Assembly: GCA_963727825.1 (NCBI GenBank)
Contig: CAVSHO010000007.1
Location: forward strand, 64,001 to 128,000
DNA from: Ignavibacteriota bacterium
GTDB taxonomy: Bacteria > Bacteroidota > Ignavibacteria > UBA10030
Length of the DNA: 64,000 nucleotides
Direction of reading: 5' to 3'
Shown: piece by piece, positions 27,741 through 32,668 of the stretch
Layout: each line of letters starts with the position of its first letter
Position numbering within the stretch: the stretch's first letter is position 1
The notes under the pieces: model-generated
Told to the model about the DNA's origin: nothing
Database searches by the model: none
The model's input: the letters and a program-made list of their open reading frames with translations, nothing else
Program-made: the position numbers and the translations under genes

Positions 27741-29558
27741 ACGTCTTATAAAAGTCTTTATAGCGCCTTAGTTACTCTCGTTATTACGTTATTTGCATGC
27801 GCTTATGGCGATAATAATATTCTAACTAATCCAGGATTTGAAAGAGGAAAGAACGGCTGGTTCGATCGGACTTGTGCAATTGAACCTGTATCATCACCGG
27901 TTCACAGTGGTACTGGTGCTATGAAGGTCGTTAATAGACTAATGAATTGGCAGGGAATAAAACAATCGGTGTTCGGTAAATTGGTACAAGGGAAAATCTA
28001 TAAAGTTTCGGGGTGGGTAAGACTCGACAATGCAAAAAGCGATACGGTCGCTATATCTTTCGAACAGCAAGATGACAGCGGTACAAAGTATATTGGTGTA
28101 GCGCGGGCTGCCGCTTCGGATACTAACTGGACTTTGTTATCCGGCGAATTTACTTTAAAAGTTACAGGAACATTAGCAGTACTGGATGTGTACTTTGAAG
28201 GCCCTGTGTCAGGTGTTAACTTTTATGTTGATGATGCGAGTGTATTCGGTCCCGAGGTTGATGCTCCGAAGGTAATACCTGCTGATCCCAACGGAAAAGG
28301 TATAATAGATGTCAACACACGATATCAAAAAATTGAAGGCTTCGGTGCTTCAGGAGCTTGGCATACAAAAGAATTAGTAAATCATAAGAAGAAGGACGAG
28401 CTGTATAATTTGCTCTTCAAAGAACTTGGCCTCGATATATTCCGTATAGGCAATTATTACGATATAGATTCAGTTTCCTTCAATGAGACGATGGAAATAG
28501 CCAGATGCGGTGAATCCGCTCTAAAGAGAAATTTAAAGATTATGATATCATCGTGGTCGCCTCCGCCTTACATGAAAAGCAACGGAAAAATAATCGGTGG
28601 AACTCTGAAAAAGAAAAACAGAAAATTTGTCTATGATGAATTTGCGGAATGGTGGACTAAAAGCGTAATTGCCTGTACAAAAGCGGGTGTAAAGATAGAT
28701 TATATAAATATACAGAATGAGACTGACTATGAAGCTCCATGGAATTCATGTGTTTTTTCTCCTTCAGAAAATGTTGATACAAACATTGCCGCCTATAACA
28801 AAGCTTTCGAAGCAGTCTGGCAAAAAATGAACGCTTCAATGGGTTCGAACATGCCGAAAATGCTTGCTCCGGAAACATCCAGTTTAGGCAATGCTAAAAA
28901 GTACATAGAATGTTTAAGCAACCCATCCCATATCTATGCTTATGCTACACATCTCTACGATTGCAGTGGATGCGGTTCCGCTCCCGACAGGTTTATTCCA
29001 AGTATGGGCAGCTTCAATAATTTTGTCGTGCAGCATATCAACAAGCCGATATTTCAGACAGAGTTCGAAGACGGACCCAGCCTATGGACAAATGCAATCA
29101 GCGCAGCATTAGTGATACATAATGCTTTGACCGTGGAAAAAGTATCCGCTTATTTATACTGGGATTTATTCTGGGGTCCGGGAACAGCTCTGGTCAGCAT
29201 GAACGATTCAACCTCATATACCATTAAACCGGCATATTATACTTTCAAGCAATATTCAGCGTTTATAGATGCTGATTGGCAGCGCGTGGAAGCATCGACC
29301 GACAACACCGGTCTGAGGATTTCTGCATACATCAGTCCGGACAATAAAAAACTGACAGCAGTTATTATAAATACTACTGATAGCACGAATATTTCTTTTA
29401 ATCTATCTGTCAATAATTTCATTATTTCCAAAGGTGAAATTTACAGATCGAGCCAGAATGAAAACTGCGCCCTGATCGGTAGTTATAACAGGAAAACTCC
29501 GTTGGAAATACCTGCAAATTCCGTTACTACCTTATCGTTAACTTACAATAAGAAGTAG
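27741..29558 (+). CDS. Secreted CBM4/9 + GH30 glycoside hydrolase (xylanase-like); start codon non-canonical or damaged
   Basis: Frame open from 27687; signal peptide plus NILTNPGFE (CBM_4_9) upstream of the called ATG 27921; GH30 motifs YQKIEGFGAS, SSWSPP, IQNE, FQTE, AYLYW. Confidence 0.8.
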   Translation, partial: TSYKSLYSALVTLVITLFACAYGDNNILTNPGFERGKNGWFDRTCAIEPVSSPVHSGTGAMKVVNRLMNWQGIKQSVFGKLVQGKIYKVSGWVRLDNAKSDTVAISFEQQDDSGTKYIGVARAAASDTNWTLLSGEFTLKVTGTLAVLDVYFEGPVSGVNFYVDDASVFGPEVDAPKVIPADPNGKGIIDVNTRYQKIEGFGASGAWHTKELVNHKKKDELYNLLFKELGLDIFRIGNYYDIDSVSFNETMEIARCGESALKRNLKIMISSWSPPPYMKSNGKIIGGTLKKKNRKFVYDEFAEWWTKSVIACTKAGVKIDYINIQNETDYEAPWNSCVFSPSENVDTNIAAYNKAFEAVWQKMNASMGSNMPKMLAPETSSLGNAKKYIECLSNPSHIYAYATHLYDCSGCGSAPDRFIPSMGSFNNFVVQHINKPIFQTEFEDGPSLWTNAISAALVIHNALTVEKVSAYLYWDLFWGPGTALVSMNDSTSYTIKPAYYTFKQYSAFIDADWQRVEASTDNTGLRISAYISPDNKKLTAVIINTTDSTNISFNLSVNNFIISKGEIYRSSQNENCALIGSYNRKTPLEIPANSVTTLSLTYNKK

Positions 29559-29623
29559 ATAGTTAGTTAATGACCGTGAATAAAGTTCAGCAAAAGCAGT
29601 GATTACTTGCCATAACTTTACCG

Positions 29624-29652
29624 TTGCGATGCGAGACATTCATTCGTATATT
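29624..29652 (+). promoter_or_regulatory. Sigma70-type promoter upstream of the tRNA-Ser cluster
   Basis: TTGCGA-17 bp-TATATT. Confidence 0.5.
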
Positions 29653-29854
29653 TTAATATATGTCGTAAAAAAATATTACCTCGTAGAAGTTGGCGTTGAA
29701 AGTTCTCAGTATTAGAAGTTTTGTCTCTCTCGGCGATTTTATTCTGGTCGATATGAAAAGCTGTTCAATAAGGTGATCAGTGAAGTAATCAGTAAACACT
29801 AATCACTTGTGACACGATAGAAAAATAAGTGGCAAAAATAAAAGTATTTAACCT

Positions 29855-29970
29855 GGAGAGCTGGCAGAACGGTCCGTCGTCATCGCTGTGCGATGACGGA
29901 CGAGATCTCGTTCCGCTAAAAGCGGAACGGACTATTGCATCCCGACATAAAGTCGGGACGGACGTAAGCC
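29855..29970 (+). pseudogene. Degenerate 5' copy of tRNA-Ser(TGA) interrupted by palindromic inserts
   Basis: GGAGAGCTGGCAGAACGG (29855-72) | insert | CTATTGCA (29932-39) | insert remnant | CGTAAGCC (29963-70); all three pieces match the intact gene at 29996. Confidence 0.85.
29873..29931. mobile_element. 59 bp double-hairpin insert I1
   Basis: TC-CGTCGTCATCGC-TGT-GCGATGACGGACG-AGATCT-CGTTCCGCT-AAA-AGCGGAACG-GA at GG^CTA of the D-loop. Confidence 0.8.
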
Positions 29971-29995
29971 AATAAGTTGGAAAGAAATAGTATTT

Positions 29996-30078
29996 GGAGA
30001 GCTGGCAGAACGGCTATTGCACCAGTCTTGAAAACTGGCGGGCGTAAGCCCTTGGGGGTTCGAATCCCTCGCTCTCCG
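29996..30078 (+). tRNA. tRNA-Ser(TGA)
   Basis: GGAGAGC acceptor stem pairs with GCTCTCC; anticodon arm CCAGT-CTTGAAA-ACTGG; long variable arm; GTTCGAATCC T-loop; CCA not encoded. Confidence 0.96.
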
Positions 30079-30144
30079 CAATTATAATTATCAAATTGCT
30101 TTTCGGGGTTCTTTTTACTTAATTAAATCAAACAAATTCAGCTC

Positions 30145-30227
30145 GGAGAGATGGCCGAGTGGTCCGTTCCGATCTGTGATCGGAACGAGATCTCGTCCCG
30201 ACAAAGTCGGGACGGACTGAAGGCGCA
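30145..30227 (+). pseudogene. Degenerate 5' copy of tRNA-Ser(GCT) interrupted by insert I2
   Basis: GGAGAGATGGCCGAGTGG | insert | CTGAAGGCGCA; the leader AATTCAGCTC (30135-44) is also repeated at 30493-30502. Confidence 0.85.
30163..30216. mobile_element. 54 bp double-hairpin insert I2
   Basis: TC-CGTTCCGATC-TGT-GATCGGAACG-AGATCT-CGTCCCGAC-AAA-GTCGGGACG-GA at GG^CTG of the D-loop. Confidence 0.8.
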
Positions 30228-30230
30228 AAG

Positions 30231-30470
30231 ATGAAAGTTTTTGTTTATATCTTGTTCTCTGAAAAGTTTGGAAAGACTTATGTTGGTCAGACTTCTGATA
30301 TTCAGAAAAGAATTACCATGCATAATGCTGGGCGAGTTAAGTCTACAAAAAGATATGCTCCTTGGAAGTTAATTCATTCAGAAGAATTTGATTCAAGGGG
30401 TGAAGCTATGGCAAAGGAAGAATGGTATAAATCTTCTTCTGGAAGGAAAAGTATACAAAAGTTTATTTAA
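30231..30470 (+). CDS. Small GIY-YIG endonuclease 1 (UPF0213/SLX1-like)
   Basis: FVYIL..TYVGQT..KRITMHN..STKRYAPWKL..EAMAKE; conserved Tyr, Arg, His and Glu present. Confidence 0.9.
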   Translation: MKVFVYILFSEKFGKTYVGQTSDIQKRITMHNAGRVKSTKRYAPWKLIHSEEFDSRGEAMAKEEWYKSSSGRKSIQKFI

Positions 30471-30502
30471 TTAATTTTTGAAATTGTAACATAATTCAGC
30501 TC

Positions 30503-30591
30503 GGAGAGATGGCCGAGTGGCTGAAGGCACAGGTTTGCTAAACCTGCATAGTGGGTAACTGCTATCGAGGGTTCGAATCCCTCTCTCTCCG
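30503..30591 (+). tRNA. tRNA-Ser(GCT)
   Basis: GGAGAGA/TCTCTCC acceptor stem; anticodon arm CAGGT-TTGCTAA-ACCTG; long variable arm; GTTCGAATCC T-loop. Confidence 0.96.
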
Positions 30592-30599
30592 CTTGTGAG

Positions 30600-30923
30600 A
30601 TGAGTTATTTCGTTTATCTGCTTTGGTCGATTCGATCAAAACGCACATATGTCGGACAAACGGATGATATCGATAATCGCCTAAAACGACATAATGCAGG
30701 ATATATTCGATCCACTAAAGCATATCGTCCTTGGGTATTGGTCCATATAGAATTGTATTCAACTCGTTCAGAAGCGATGAAGAGAGAAATATGGTTGAAG
30801 AGCCCGACAGGTAGGAAATCGATAGTTAAGATTATTGGAAAATGGCAAGAGAAAGGTTTGTCCGTTCCGTTGTCAGAGACAACGGAACGAGATCGCGATC
30901 CCGCAGGAGCGGGATCGGACTAA
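30600..30923 (+). CDS. Small GIY-YIG endonuclease 2 (UPF0213/SLX1-like)
   Basis: FVYLL..TYVGQT..NRLKRHN..STKAYRPWVL..EAMKRE; C-terminal tail reads through the tRNA duplicate and insert I3. Confidence 0.9.
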   Translation: MSYFVYLLWSIRSKRTYVGQTDDIDNRLKRHNAGYIRSTKAYRPWVLVHIELYSTRSEAMKREIWLKSPTGRKSIVKIIGKWQEKGLSVPLSETTERDRDPAGAGSD

Positions 30924-30973
30924 ACCTGCATAGTGGGTAACTGCTATCGAGGGTTCGAATCCCTCTCTCTCCG
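30854..30973 (+). pseudogene. 3' copy of tRNA-Ser(GCT) with an insert in the anticodon
   Basis: AGGTTTG | insert | CTAAACCTGCATAGTGGGTAACTGCTATCGAGGGTTCGAATCCCTCTCTCTCCG; identical to 30531-30591 once the insert is removed. Confidence 0.88.
30861..30919. mobile_element. 59 bp double-hairpin insert I3
   Basis: TC-CGTTCCGTTGTC-AGA-GACAACGGAACG-AGATCG-CGATCCCGC-AGGA-GCGGGATCG-GA at G^CT of the anticodon. Confidence 0.8.
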
Positions 30974-30981
30974 CTGGTAAG

Positions 30982-31038
30982 ATGAGTTATTTTGTATATC
31001 TGCTAAGGTCGATACGATCAAAGCAAACATATGTTGGA
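30982..31038 (+). pseudogene. 5' remnant of a third GIY-YIG gene
   Basis: ATGAGTTATTTTGTATATCTGCTAAGGTCGATACGATCAAAGCAAACATATGTTGGA (MSYFVYLLRSIRSKQTYVG), a diverged copy of 30600-30656. Confidence 0.8.
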
Positions 31039-31102
31039 CTAAACCTGCATAGTGGGTAACTGCTATCGAGGGTTCTCCCGGCAAGTCGGGACTCTCTCTC
31101 TG
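31039..31102 (+). pseudogene. Second 3' copy of tRNA-Ser(GCT) with part of the T-arm replaced by a hairpin
   Basis: CTAAACCTG...GAGGGTTC, then TCCCGGCAAGTCGGGA (31076-91) in place of GAATCC, then CTCTCTCTCTG. Confidence 0.8.
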
Positions 31103-31163
31103 CAAAACTTTATTCCATGAAAATATGGAATATAGTTTTACTGGCAAGTCCTGAAAGATGGAT

Positions 31164-31194
31164 AAGCGTCTCATATCTTCGGGACGCTTTTTTT
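31164..31194 (+). terminator. Rho-independent terminator after the tRNA/GIY-YIG cluster
   Basis: AAGCGTCTC-loop-GGGACGCTT followed by a T-tract. Confidence 0.65.
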
Positions 31195-31216
31195 GTATTA
31201 GAACAGGTTATCGGAA

Positions 31217-32668
31217 ATGGGAAATCAAATTCGCGTTCGTTTTGCACCAAGCCCTACAGGATATTTACACGTAGGCGGGTTACGCACAGCATTATATAAT
31301 TATCTATTTGCAAAACACTTTGGCGGTAAATTCATTCTTCGCATTGAAGATACTGATCAATCGCGCAAAGTTGAAGGTGCGGTTGAAAATTTGATCGAAA
31401 CTCTGAAATGGTCTGGAATTGAATATGATGAAGGTCCTGACCGTGATGGTGGTCGTGGTCCGTATGTGCAATCTCAACGTTTAGAATTGTACCGCAAGTA
31501 TGCACAAGAACTCATCAGCAAGGATAAAGCGTATCATTGTTTCTGTACATCTGAACGATTGCAGGAAGTTCGTAAAAAACAATTGGCCGCAAAACTTTCT
31601 CCTTCGTACGACCGCCATTGCCGAAATGTATCTCGAGAAGAAGCGGAACGCCGAGTTGCAGCAGGTGAGCAAAATGTCATCCGCATGAAAATACCACTCG
31701 AAGGTGAATTATCATTTGATGATGTTATTCGCGGCAAAGTAACCATTTCTCATAAGATGATAGACGATCAAGTGCTTATCAAGTCAGATGGATTCCCGAC
31801 ATATCACCTTGCAGTTGTTGTCGATGATCATTTAATGGGAATTACACACGTCATTCGCGGCGAAGAGTGGCTGTCGAGTGTCCCGAAACATATTCTGATA
31901 TATAACTATTTCGGATGGGAATTGCCGGTGCTTGCGCATCTTCCATTGTTATTGAATCCTGATAAATCTAAACTCAGCAAGCGTCAAGGAGATGTAGCGG
32001 TAGAAGATTATCGTGCCAAAGGATATCTTAAGGAAGCGATCGTGAATTTTATTGCATTCCTCGGTTGGAATCCAGGCGATGAGCGGGAAATATTTTTAAT
32101 GGAACAACTTATTCAAGAATTCACTTTAGATCGTGTCGGCAAGTCCGGTGCAGTATTCAATGTCGAAAAATTAAATTGGCTCAATCAACAGCATATCAAA
32201 CTTAAATCGAACGAAGAACTTGCTCAACTCATCAAACCGGATCTTCAAGCTGCCCAATTAGCGAATATAAATAATGATTATTTTCTAAAAGTAATCAGTT
32301 TATTGAAAGAACGGCTGAACTTTCCGAAGAATTTTATTGAGATGAGCAAGTACTTCTTCCGTGACCCGGAATCTTTCGATGAAGCAGGATTGAAGAAATA
32401 TTGGGAACCGGAGACAAGCGATCAACTAAAATTGCTCGCTGATCGTTTTGAGGCGCTTCTGGAATTTTCTCATGCTTCCGTCGAAGCAGCTTTACGGCAA
32501 TTAGCCGAAGAGCTCCAGATTAAGCCAACTAAACTTATCCATCCTGCACGGCTGGCGCTTTCAGGAAGAACTATAGGCCCCGGATTATTTGAAATGATAG
32601 AATTACTTGGGAAAGAAACTGTCGTTCGGCGTTTGCGCCGCGCGATAGAAAAATTCAAAGCGATGTAA
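31217..32668 (+). CDS. gltX: Glutamate--tRNA ligase
   Basis: RFAPSPTGYLHVGG (HIGH), RIEDTD, PTYHLA, IRGEEW and KLSKR motifs. Confidence 0.97.
   Translation: MGNQIRVRFAPSPTGYLHVGGLRTALYNYLFAKHFGGKFILRIEDTDQSRKVEGAVENLIETLKWSGIEYDEGPDRDGGRGPYVQSQRLELYRKYAQELISKDKAYHCFCTSERLQEVRKKQLAAKLSPSYDRHCRNVSREEAERRVAAGEQNVIRMKIPLEGELSFDDVIRGKVTISHKMIDDQVLIKSDGFPTYHLAVVVDDHLMGITHVIRGEEWLSSVPKHILIYNYFGWELPVLAHLPLLLNPDKSKLSKRQGDVAVEDYRAKGYLKEAIVNFIAFLGWNPGDEREIFLMEQLIQEFTLDRVGKSGAVFNVEKLNWLNQQHIKLKSNEELAQLIKPDLQAAQLANINNDYFLKVISLLKERLNFPKNFIEMSKYFFRDPESFDEAGLKKYWEPETSDQLKLLADRFEALLEFSHASVEAALRQLAEELQIKPTKLIHPARLALSGRTIGPGLFEMIELLGKETVVRRLRRAIEKFKAM

Follow-up and report, generated by a model that had tools for sequence, protein, structure and literature searches.

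Small GIY-YIG nuclease genes between tRNA genes and their hairpin-scarred partial duplicates: a candidate minimal selfish element

The cassette upstream of gltX

The DNA analysed here, referred to as the window, is a stretch of 64,000 nucleotides (nt) from an Ignavibacteriota bacterium (assembly GCA_963727825.1, contig CAVSHO010000007.1, positions 64,001 to 128,000 of the forward strand). At 29824-31103 of this window lies a cassette in which two intact tRNA-Ser genes are accompanied by two open reading frames (ORFs) for single-domain GIY-YIG nucleases (PF01541 matches with E values of 4e-17 and 3e-17), a 19-codon stump of a third one, and four partial tRNA duplicates, hereafter called ghosts, all four of which hold hairpin inserts. 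All these features are on the + strand, and the gene gltX (31217-32668) lies downstream. An earlier reading of the DNA (the sequence-only reading) had listed these parts, each of which was found where it had been placed, and had proposed that they form an integrase-free unit with the nuclease as its only gene, tied to partial duplications of tRNA genes. This proposal has held both in the cassette, where profile searches gave no match to an integrase, a Y1 transposase or a reverse transcriptase (RT), and across genomes, where the layout is real and widespread.

The working tRNA-Ser(GCT) gene (30503-30592), which together with the second copy of a 10-nt leader occupies 30493-30592, stands between the two nuclease genes. 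GIY-YIG-2 (30600-30923) starts 7 nt behind it; its domain comprises the first 82 codons, and its frame continues through the AGGTTTG and the insert of the 3' ghost C (30854-30974). This ghost consists of AGGTTTG, a 59-nt composite palindrome inserted at G^C of the anticodon loop (30861-30919), and tRNA nt 36-90, identical to those of the working gene. In front of the tRNA is GIY-YIG-1 (30231-30470), a single domain of 79 aa, preceded by the 5' ghost B (30135-30230), in which the 10-nt leader and tRNA nt 1-18 are followed by a 54-nt insert (30163-30216) and nt 19-26. Beyond ghost C, the 5' stump of a third nuclease allele (30982-31038) breaks off at a GGAC that it shares, as a microhomology, with the end of the insert, and adjoins the 3' ghost D (31039-31103), where tRNA nt 36-72 are exact, a 16-nt hairpin (31076-31091) takes the place of GAATCC, 6 nt of the T arm, and nt 79-90 follow with 1 mismatch. 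The remnant noticed by the sequence-only reading is thus present, but it is a diverged allele and not a decayed copy, because its synonymous differences from GIY-YIG-2 (6.5; proportion of synonymous differences, pS, 0.41) exceed the replacement ones (2.5).

The tRNA-Ser(TGA) gene (29996-30079) is preceded by its own 5' ghost, ghost A (29855-29970), made of nt 1-18, a first insert, nt 19-26, a second insert, and nt 44-55 with 1 mismatch. The first insert (29873-29931), in the D-loop at GG^C, is a 59-nt composite palindrome with a DNA fold of -23.1 kcal/mol, in which an outer TCCG-CGAGATCTCG-CGGA contains two symmetric G^C sites, both with a further hairpin nested in them. The second (29940-29958), a 19-nt TCCCG..CGGGA hairpin, substitutes exactly the 17-nt anticodon arm. 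The three long inserts of the cassette share one build, an outer 18-nt palindrome (that sequence or a close variant) plus two nested hairpins, and a composite palindrome of the same architecture is found at the tRNA-Asn locus of the source genome. Ghosts resembling ghost A are present in three congeners (G005, G009 and G001; G000 denotes the source genome, other G numbers further genomes, L numbers loci and C numbers contigs).

The structural model of GIY-YIG-2 (pLDDT, the predicted local distance difference test, 94) has UPF0213 (1zg2) and Slx1 as its nearest folds, and the features of Slx1/UPF0213-like nucleases are all found: a PF01541 domain, the catalytic Tyr, Arg, His and Glu, and an Slx1-like fold. 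Residues Y6, Y17, G19, R27, H31 and E63 are unvarying in 11/11 aligned nucleases. In all of the 10 nuclease pairs compared, the proportion of replacement differences (pN, 0.10-0.23) is below pS (0.39-0.72), from which it follows that these proteins are under purifying selection. The ESM Atlas returned generic GIY-YIG clusters only, and the TIGR01453 score of GIY-YIG-1 and GIY-YIG-2 is far under the cut-off.

Empty alleles, relatives and fidelity to tRNA type

Empty-site alleles were sought at the Ser(GCT)-gltX site. The GIY-YIG-2 unit is absent from it in 8 congeners and present, with the same anticodon-loop border, in 4, so that the filled allele occurs in 5 genomes including the source. The border of ghost C is common to G006, G007, G008 and G010 and to 10 more distant loci. 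On the gltX tree, genomes with empty and with filled alleles are intermingled, and G013, the nearest relative, belongs to the empty ones. GIY-YIG-1 was seen at its site in none of the 11 congeners with a readable region upstream of tRNA-Ser(GCT), which indicates that it is either a recent gain or widely lost. Comparison of filled with empty alleles (G006 with G005, G010 with G009, G000 with G013) revealed that the ghost retains the flank of the empty allele, and it is therefore the old chromosomal half; likewise, the upstream flank of ghost B is that of the empty allele, which identifies this ghost as the 5' part originally present in the chromosome.

The sequence-only reading had regarded the ghosts as dead copies. 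They exhibit no decay by point mutation, and instead track the tRNA of their own host. In 6/6 congeneric copies the ghost equals the working tRNA without substitution for 37-55 nt, ending at a hairpin insert or at the tRNA end, while in 10 distant loci it is exact to the tRNA of its own host over 21-56 nt, even though these tRNAs differ from that of the source at 1-14 of 30 nt. Since the nucleases diverge meanwhile (congeneric GIY-YIG-2 proteins are 62-78% identical), the ghost must either be a copy of the local tRNA or be kept uniform with it by homogenisation. Tandem arrays, with 14 units of ~299 nt in G002, at least 3 in G006 and 5 in G077, show the type of recombination that would homogenise ghosts. 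The array of G002 (L102, G002:C2:365021-369130) reaches the contig end, and each of its units holds a nuclease and a 3' ghost of tRNA-Pro(CGG) with a swapped anticodon arm.

The association between GIY-YIG genes and tRNA duplications was sought across genomes as well. In the source genome there are 14 PF01541 matches, 10 of them beside 8 tRNA genes with ghost pieces and hairpins; as 1.7% of this genome lies within 700 nt of a tRNA, such adjacency is not due to chance. Of the remaining four matches, one is a UvrC-sized frame of 634 aa, one a frame of 300 aa, and two are genes with the GTCA-tagged hairpin of the Ssn system, described below, on their flanks. Scarred ghosts without an intact nuclease are found at the genes for tRNA-Asn, Arg-TCT, Arg-CCT, Ala-CGC and Leu-TAG, at three genes with a Met anticodon, and at a 5S rRNA gene. 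Within the genus, for which every match of the search was retrieved, 65 of 73 rows not of the Ssn type are tRNA-adjacent, versus 0 of 27 Ssn-type rows. A scan of GTDB confirmed 560 relatives among 587 candidates; in the best 80 of the 560, two of which duplicate genus loci, a tRNA lies within 500 nt in 73 and within 150 nt in 62. At these 73 loci the nuclease gene is always on the same strand as the tRNA, and a ghost of 12 nt or more is present at 64. The seven misses comprise two arrays with the tRNA further away, four loci cut by contig ends, and one at which the 3' part of a tRNA was overlooked by ARAGORN. In an even sample of the phylum, the clade is present in 63 of 151 genomes, and the best locus of 29 of these 63 was tRNA-adjacent with ghosts in 27, again always on the strand of the tRNA, the two misses being at contig ends. 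The taxon labels comprise Bacteroidota, Ignavibacteriota, Kryptoniota, KSB1, Marinimicrobia and several groups of the candidate phyla radiation; some labels of metagenome-assembled genomes (Gammaproteobacteria, Synechococcus, an archaeon) may be wrong. On two viral contigs (L054 and L055), which may include the host flank of a provirus, the nuclease gene abuts tRNA-Cys and tRNA-Arg.

Across 59 loci the length of the unit ranges from 306 to 812 nt (median 370); the nuclease is its sole gene, always in one orientation, and the unit borders fall at cloverleaf positions common across families. Its polarity follows the side on which the gene is located: genes behind the tRNA, often by a few bases, are followed by a 3' ghost, and those in front are accompanied by a 5' ghost. 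Thus, the tRNA 3' end is found in 38 of 40 far ghosts of downstream genes, and the 5' end in 17 of 19 of upstream genes.

On the nuclease trees (a quick one and a FastTree one, 178 rows, built after leaving out identical proteins and rows below 60 aa), tRNA labels were counted for 133 rows, once the Ssn-type rows, the unlabelled ones and one row of undetermined anticodon were dropped. The label changes 38 times, versus 101 in free shuffles and 93 in shuffles within phyla, a value reached in 0 of 300 shuffles; GTDB rows by themselves give 22 changes versus 49 and 43. For the genus rows there are 20 changes versus 48.5, while the host-genome label is unclustered (49 versus 49.4). Each nuclease lineage is thereby shown to keep to one tRNA type in these trees, with occasional switches, such as those that placed a gene of the Ser-GGA type at Ser-GCT (G012) and one of the Ser-GCT type at Ser-TGA (L149), and one from Arg-ACG to Arg-TCG, several of them between isoacceptors with shared sequence. 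Because kin share labels, these counts demonstrate fidelity to the locus and not, by themselves, specificity of the enzyme. The spreading among tRNA genes that had been proposed in the sequence-only reading is consequently rare, and the divergence of GIY-YIG-2 tracks that of gltX. Discordant pairs do exist, as for Gln-TTG in G000 and G006 (pS 0.74 versus 0.40 for gltX), and a test for homing gave patchy alleles and some discordant divergences with a pS that is mostly host-like. This mostly gltX-like pS, the discordant pairs and the diverged stump allele together argue for long residence with occasional allele exchange.

A sister sub-clade shows a different arrangement. In four congeners (L087 in G005, L094 in G012, L101 in G009 and L106 in G013) its nuclease is the sole gene of a 294-301-bp element with terminal inverted repeats of 12-14 bp, inserted within RAYT-like genes (three cases) or in the C-terminus of an integrase-like frame (one case). 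The interrupted genes were identified by likeness to ORFs of the source genome, and a Pfam search of the short flanks gave nothing above the cut-off. As this candidate GIY-YIG-only insertion sequence holds no other gene, it shows that a gene of this kind travels alone.

Hairpins in the ghosts and elsewhere in the genome

A total of 170 insert events were scored (one of 171 was dropped for a run of N; events at orthologous sites are not independent), of which 33 are in the T-loop, 18 in the D-loop and 13 in the anticodon loop. The exact swap of the 17-nt anticodon arm accounts for 22 events, at 19 loci and in 7 tRNA types, with 9 more being nearly exact. In 115 of the 170 cases the insert folds more stably than all 50 of its shuffles. 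T-loop inserts are often double, with two oppositely oriented hairpins at the palindromic TTC^GAA, and the hairpins sit at the same unit border across families. No single target-sequence rule covers the inserts: the composite palindromes are at G^C, the T-loop ones at C^G, and others differ. In the Leu-CAA ghosts of G000 (L006) and G006 (L099) the anticodon arm is retained, with a hairpin and a 4-nt tail on each side, and the second hairpins of the two genomes are distinguished by a compensatory pair.

These hairpins are not confined to tRNA genes. The source genome contains 125 of them, versus 13 and 6 in two shuffles; 18 lie within 700 nt of a tRNA, which represents an 8-fold enrichment, while 107 lie further away, in terminators, other repeats, the 5S rRNA ghost and some ORFs. 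The proposed composition of the element, a nuclease plus a palindrome, therefore stands as regards the presence of palindromes in all ghosts of the cassette, but the palindrome is not private to the unit. In the phylum sample, hairpins of the TCCCGAY type have a median of 8 in the 63 nuclease-positive genomes versus 2 in the 88 negative ones, and of 7 versus 1.5 when counted by family.

Other loci of the source genome exhibit the same kind of scar in further settings. At L012 (G000:C10:259985-260090) a partial duplicate of the 5S rRNA end with three nested hairpin inserts adjoins the intact copy, so that rRNA genes are affected too. At L011 (G000:C1:209690-209860) a working tRNA-Leu(TAG) gene lies inside the loop of a TCCCGC..GCGGGA hairpin; this hairpin has taken the place of the anticodon arm in an older tRNA-Leu gene, whose acceptor stem is different. 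At L050 (G025:C12), and in repeated matches in G006, G009 and G010, a composite palindrome is found inside an apparent protein-coding C-terminal region, and palindromes of this type recur at many places in some congeners.

Known systems and possible mechanisms

No description of this layout was found in the literature searched, which covered few subscription papers and no supplements, and it is apparently undescribed. The sequence-only reading had not recognised a characterised family either, and the unit indeed fails the defining features of Ssn, SegB, REP/RAYT and integrase islands. A close parallel is Ssn, whose SsnA (cd10448) is likewise a single-domain GIY-YIG protein of less than 100 aa tied to GC-rich hairpin repeats (SRM/NTS), cuts single-stranded DNA (ssDNA) just upstream of a hairpin, and has been suggested to be a domesticated mobile element (Chenal et al. 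2025, PMC11893778). However, Ssn-type genes, defined here by likeness to two SRM-flanked genes of the source genome and not by the CDD model, form a separate branch of 27 rows (support 99) that is never located at tRNAs. The GTCA-tagged SRM is found at 2 of 65 tRNA-linked genes versus 22 of 27 Ssn-type ones, the NPxW tail in 0 of 65 versus 23 of 27, and the main text of the Ssn paper makes no mention of tRNA (PMC11893778). Two ordinary Ssn-type genes with SRM-like hairpins are present in the source genome (L009, G000:C7:171146-171520; L010, G000:C9:22950-23460), where, at other places, a TCCCGAC hairpin is nested within SRM copies.

SegB of T4 and T6 phages is also a GIY-YIG gene beside tRNA genes, and nuclease-free alleles exist in relatives here. 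This enzyme is reported to cut in a tRNA motif, to home and to drive segmental amplification (PMC2330249, PMC13096335); it is phage-borne, cuts double-stranded DNA at a 27-bp site and is described as having no preference for tRNA type (PMC13096335). In contrast, the present nucleases are chromosomal, faithful to a tRNA type, flanked by scarred partial repeats and, with 79-82 aa in one domain, have no room for a DNA-binding region. REP/REPIN sequences resemble the hairpins in being short, nested, dispersed palindromes above chance number, and their spread is attributed to a trans-acting enzyme that is present in single copy, is itself largely immobile and has a host-like tree (PMC3116915). Here, however, the linked enzyme is of the GIY-YIG and not of the HUH type and its gene is anchored in tRNA repeats, the cassette lacks a Y1 gene, and neither tRNA nor GIY is mentioned in the passages of that work that were searched (PMC3116915). 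The stand-alone Slx1-like/UPF0213 nucleases of prokaryotes share the minimal fold and are the nearest sequence family (PDB 1zg2, 1ywl). They have been described as vertically inherited repair proteins, with no link to tRNA genes in the passages of that source (PMC1564403), and the UPF0213-like rows L111 and L124, unlike the tRNA-linked set, are not at tRNAs.

Islands that target tRNA genes rebuild the working tRNA at one end, leave a displaced fragment at the other and have precise empty alleles. The ghosts resemble such fragments in retaining the flank of the empty site, but no integrase lies between tRNA and fragment, the unit measures ~370 bp, forms tandem arrays and bears a palindromic scar at its border. 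On balance, the unit would seem to work most like Ssn (ssDNA and hairpins) and SegB (tRNA region, homing and amplification), failing defining features of both. A Penelope-like or other retroelement was rejected, no RT being linked to GIY-YIG; the only RT of the source genome sits on another contig.

We lean, by a modest degree, towards a minimal selfish element formed by one small Slx1/UPF0213-like GIY-YIG gene between a working tRNA and its partial direct repeat, an anatomy that is plain at the loci, and we infer that the nuclease makes the duplications or moves the hairpins. The gene would be expressed from the tRNA promoter, and the enzyme, in the manner of SsnA and Slx1, would nick ssDNA that has folded into a cloverleaf or a hairpin. 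Recombinational repair between the tRNA repeats could then insert, amplify, contract or delete the unit, and the same repair would keep the ghost identical to the working gene, while diverged alleles from other strains may occasionally enter the same site. The short T..A hairpins would be non-autonomous passengers, pasted into nicks of any folded DNA and surviving in the spare copy; one hit per strand at the 5' stem foot, followed by collapse between the two palindromes, would yield the exact swap of an anticodon arm. A bolder proposal, which we advance tentatively and with some doubt, is that of a new class of mobile DNA with a single gene. Its product, an 80-aa GIY-YIG enzyme, would recognise one tRNA gene as ssDNA, by folded shape as well as by sequence. 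It would insert and multiply a ~370-bp unit of its own there with neither integrase nor transposase, and would be the missing agent behind the mobility of the 15-30-nt hairpins found in tRNA copies, terminators and ORFs, while a sister branch would do likewise as a ~295-bp inverted-repeat element.

Several observations weigh against the selfish element so conceived. GIY-YIG enzymes hydrolyse DNA and are not known to have a strand-joining chemistry, so that the pasting step needs host enzymes. Among the insert events, 75 of 170 could not be classed by position and 64 are in loops and not at stem feet, and one clear two-sided intermediate locus (in two orthologous copies) faces many finished swaps. 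Some genomes of family f22 hold up to 238 hairpins with no nuclease match at E<=1e-20, while several of family f30 have the nuclease and zero hairpins of this type, kin not being independent in these comparisons. The pS of the nuclease is near that of gltX in most congeneric pairs, which vertical residence with repeated loss would fit equally well; the tree was built from 79 columns and its deep branches are weak; and the GTDB scan used a narrow alignment (A2) biased towards Ser-GCT and Gln-TTG types. Finally, 2 weak phage matches among 50,697 records and 4 loci on viral contigs were the yield of the search for a transfer vehicle, and none was found.

The main alternative, conceivable though unlikely, is that two independent actors are at work, an HUH enzyme (RAYT/IS200-type) or some other one moving hairpins that accumulate in spare tRNA copies, and a GIY-YIG gene separately linked to tRNAs. 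A 4-nt tail beside a hairpin is a trait of HUH substrates, and some hairpins have it; moreover, 9 Y1_Tnp matches were counted in the source genome along with 6 further RAYT-like ORFs, 5 of the 15 Y1/RAYT-like genes inspected have a single hairpin of this family nearby, and both the many hairpins away from tRNAs and the hairpin-rich genomes without a nuclease match would be expected. Nevertheless, the palindromes at RAYT-like genes belong mainly to other families (ACCTTCCGAAGG, ACCTTGTCAAGG and GTAGGGAC types), with the TCCCG/CCGCC type mostly nested within them, and neither the enrichment of hairpins near tRNAs nor their position at the same unit border across families is in its favour. We deem it quite improbable that the nuclease has a domesticated function, kept by the host as a gene-dosage accordion or to police recombination and incoming ssDNA at tRNA genes, where islands and prophages usually land. 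The long persistence of the gene at one tRNA, under purifying selection, speaks for it, as do the amplification of a tRNA-Tyr segment by SegB against a tRNA-cleaving defence (PMC13096335) and the restriction of transforming DNA by SsnA (PMC11893778), but the arrays multiply nuclease and ghost and not the working tRNA, close relatives lose the unit precisely and often, and 2 of the 10 tRNA-linked copies in the source genome are broken.

The ties between lineages and tRNA types, together with ghosts that run in the direction of the tRNA and often lack exactly the anticodon arm, could also point to a protein acting on RNA, that is, a tRNA-type-specific toxin or defence nuclease with the ghost as decoy or regulator. 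This is very improbable, given that the most similar folds are those of DNA nucleases, the scars arose at the level of DNA, the unit has no partner gene, and SsnA is reported not to bind RNA (PMC11893778). There is hardly a better case for remnants of integrase islands shrunken to one cargo gene. Displaced 3' or 5' tRNA fragments are the signature of islands, and integrase genes lie within ~600 nt of 2 of the 8 source loci (C1:3425 and C11:152616), yet outside the repeats, and the unit always has the same short length range, single gene and orientation, with shared cloverleaf borders. Lastly, that the short repeats are an artefact of assembly can practically be dismissed. The source assembly has 14 contigs and 6.55% contamination, and no contig piece from public runs covers the whole cassette, but contigs of other runs bridge three junction regions, 30135-30522 (X5, 7 differences), 29854-30013 (X2, 2 differences) and 30953-31128 (X1, 7 differences), the copies differ in sequence, four congeners have the same GIY-YIG-2 unit and border, and the layout is also found in single-contig genomes such as G015.

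The layout supplies a context, and a substrate that can be tested, for a large family whose only annotation is 'GIY-YIG nuclease family protein', and it accounts for a frequent cause of mistaken split-tRNA and tRNA-intron calls. With every lineage come both its predicted target, the tRNA gene, and the predicted product, the ghost. If the bolder proposal is true, the lineages would form a natural library of nickases that act on ssDNA and differ in the structure and sequence they target. If the enzyme drives the events, GIY-YIG would join the short list of chemistries that mobilise bacterial DNA, the unit would be among the smallest autonomous ones known, and a candidate would be at hand for what moves very short palindromic repeats.

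Regarding the surroundings of the cassette, promoter and terminator scans of the region gave nothing above chance. The sole terminator-like hairpin in 29500-31300 (31164-31189, + strand; 1 versus 1.5 expected in shuffles) precedes gltX, so the cassette may be one transcript, and an RNA run (X18) has pieces over it, a kind of contig that cannot show transcription. Upstream, a CBM4/9-GH30 gene (27921-29558) lies outside the unit, and other genes are found there in congeners.

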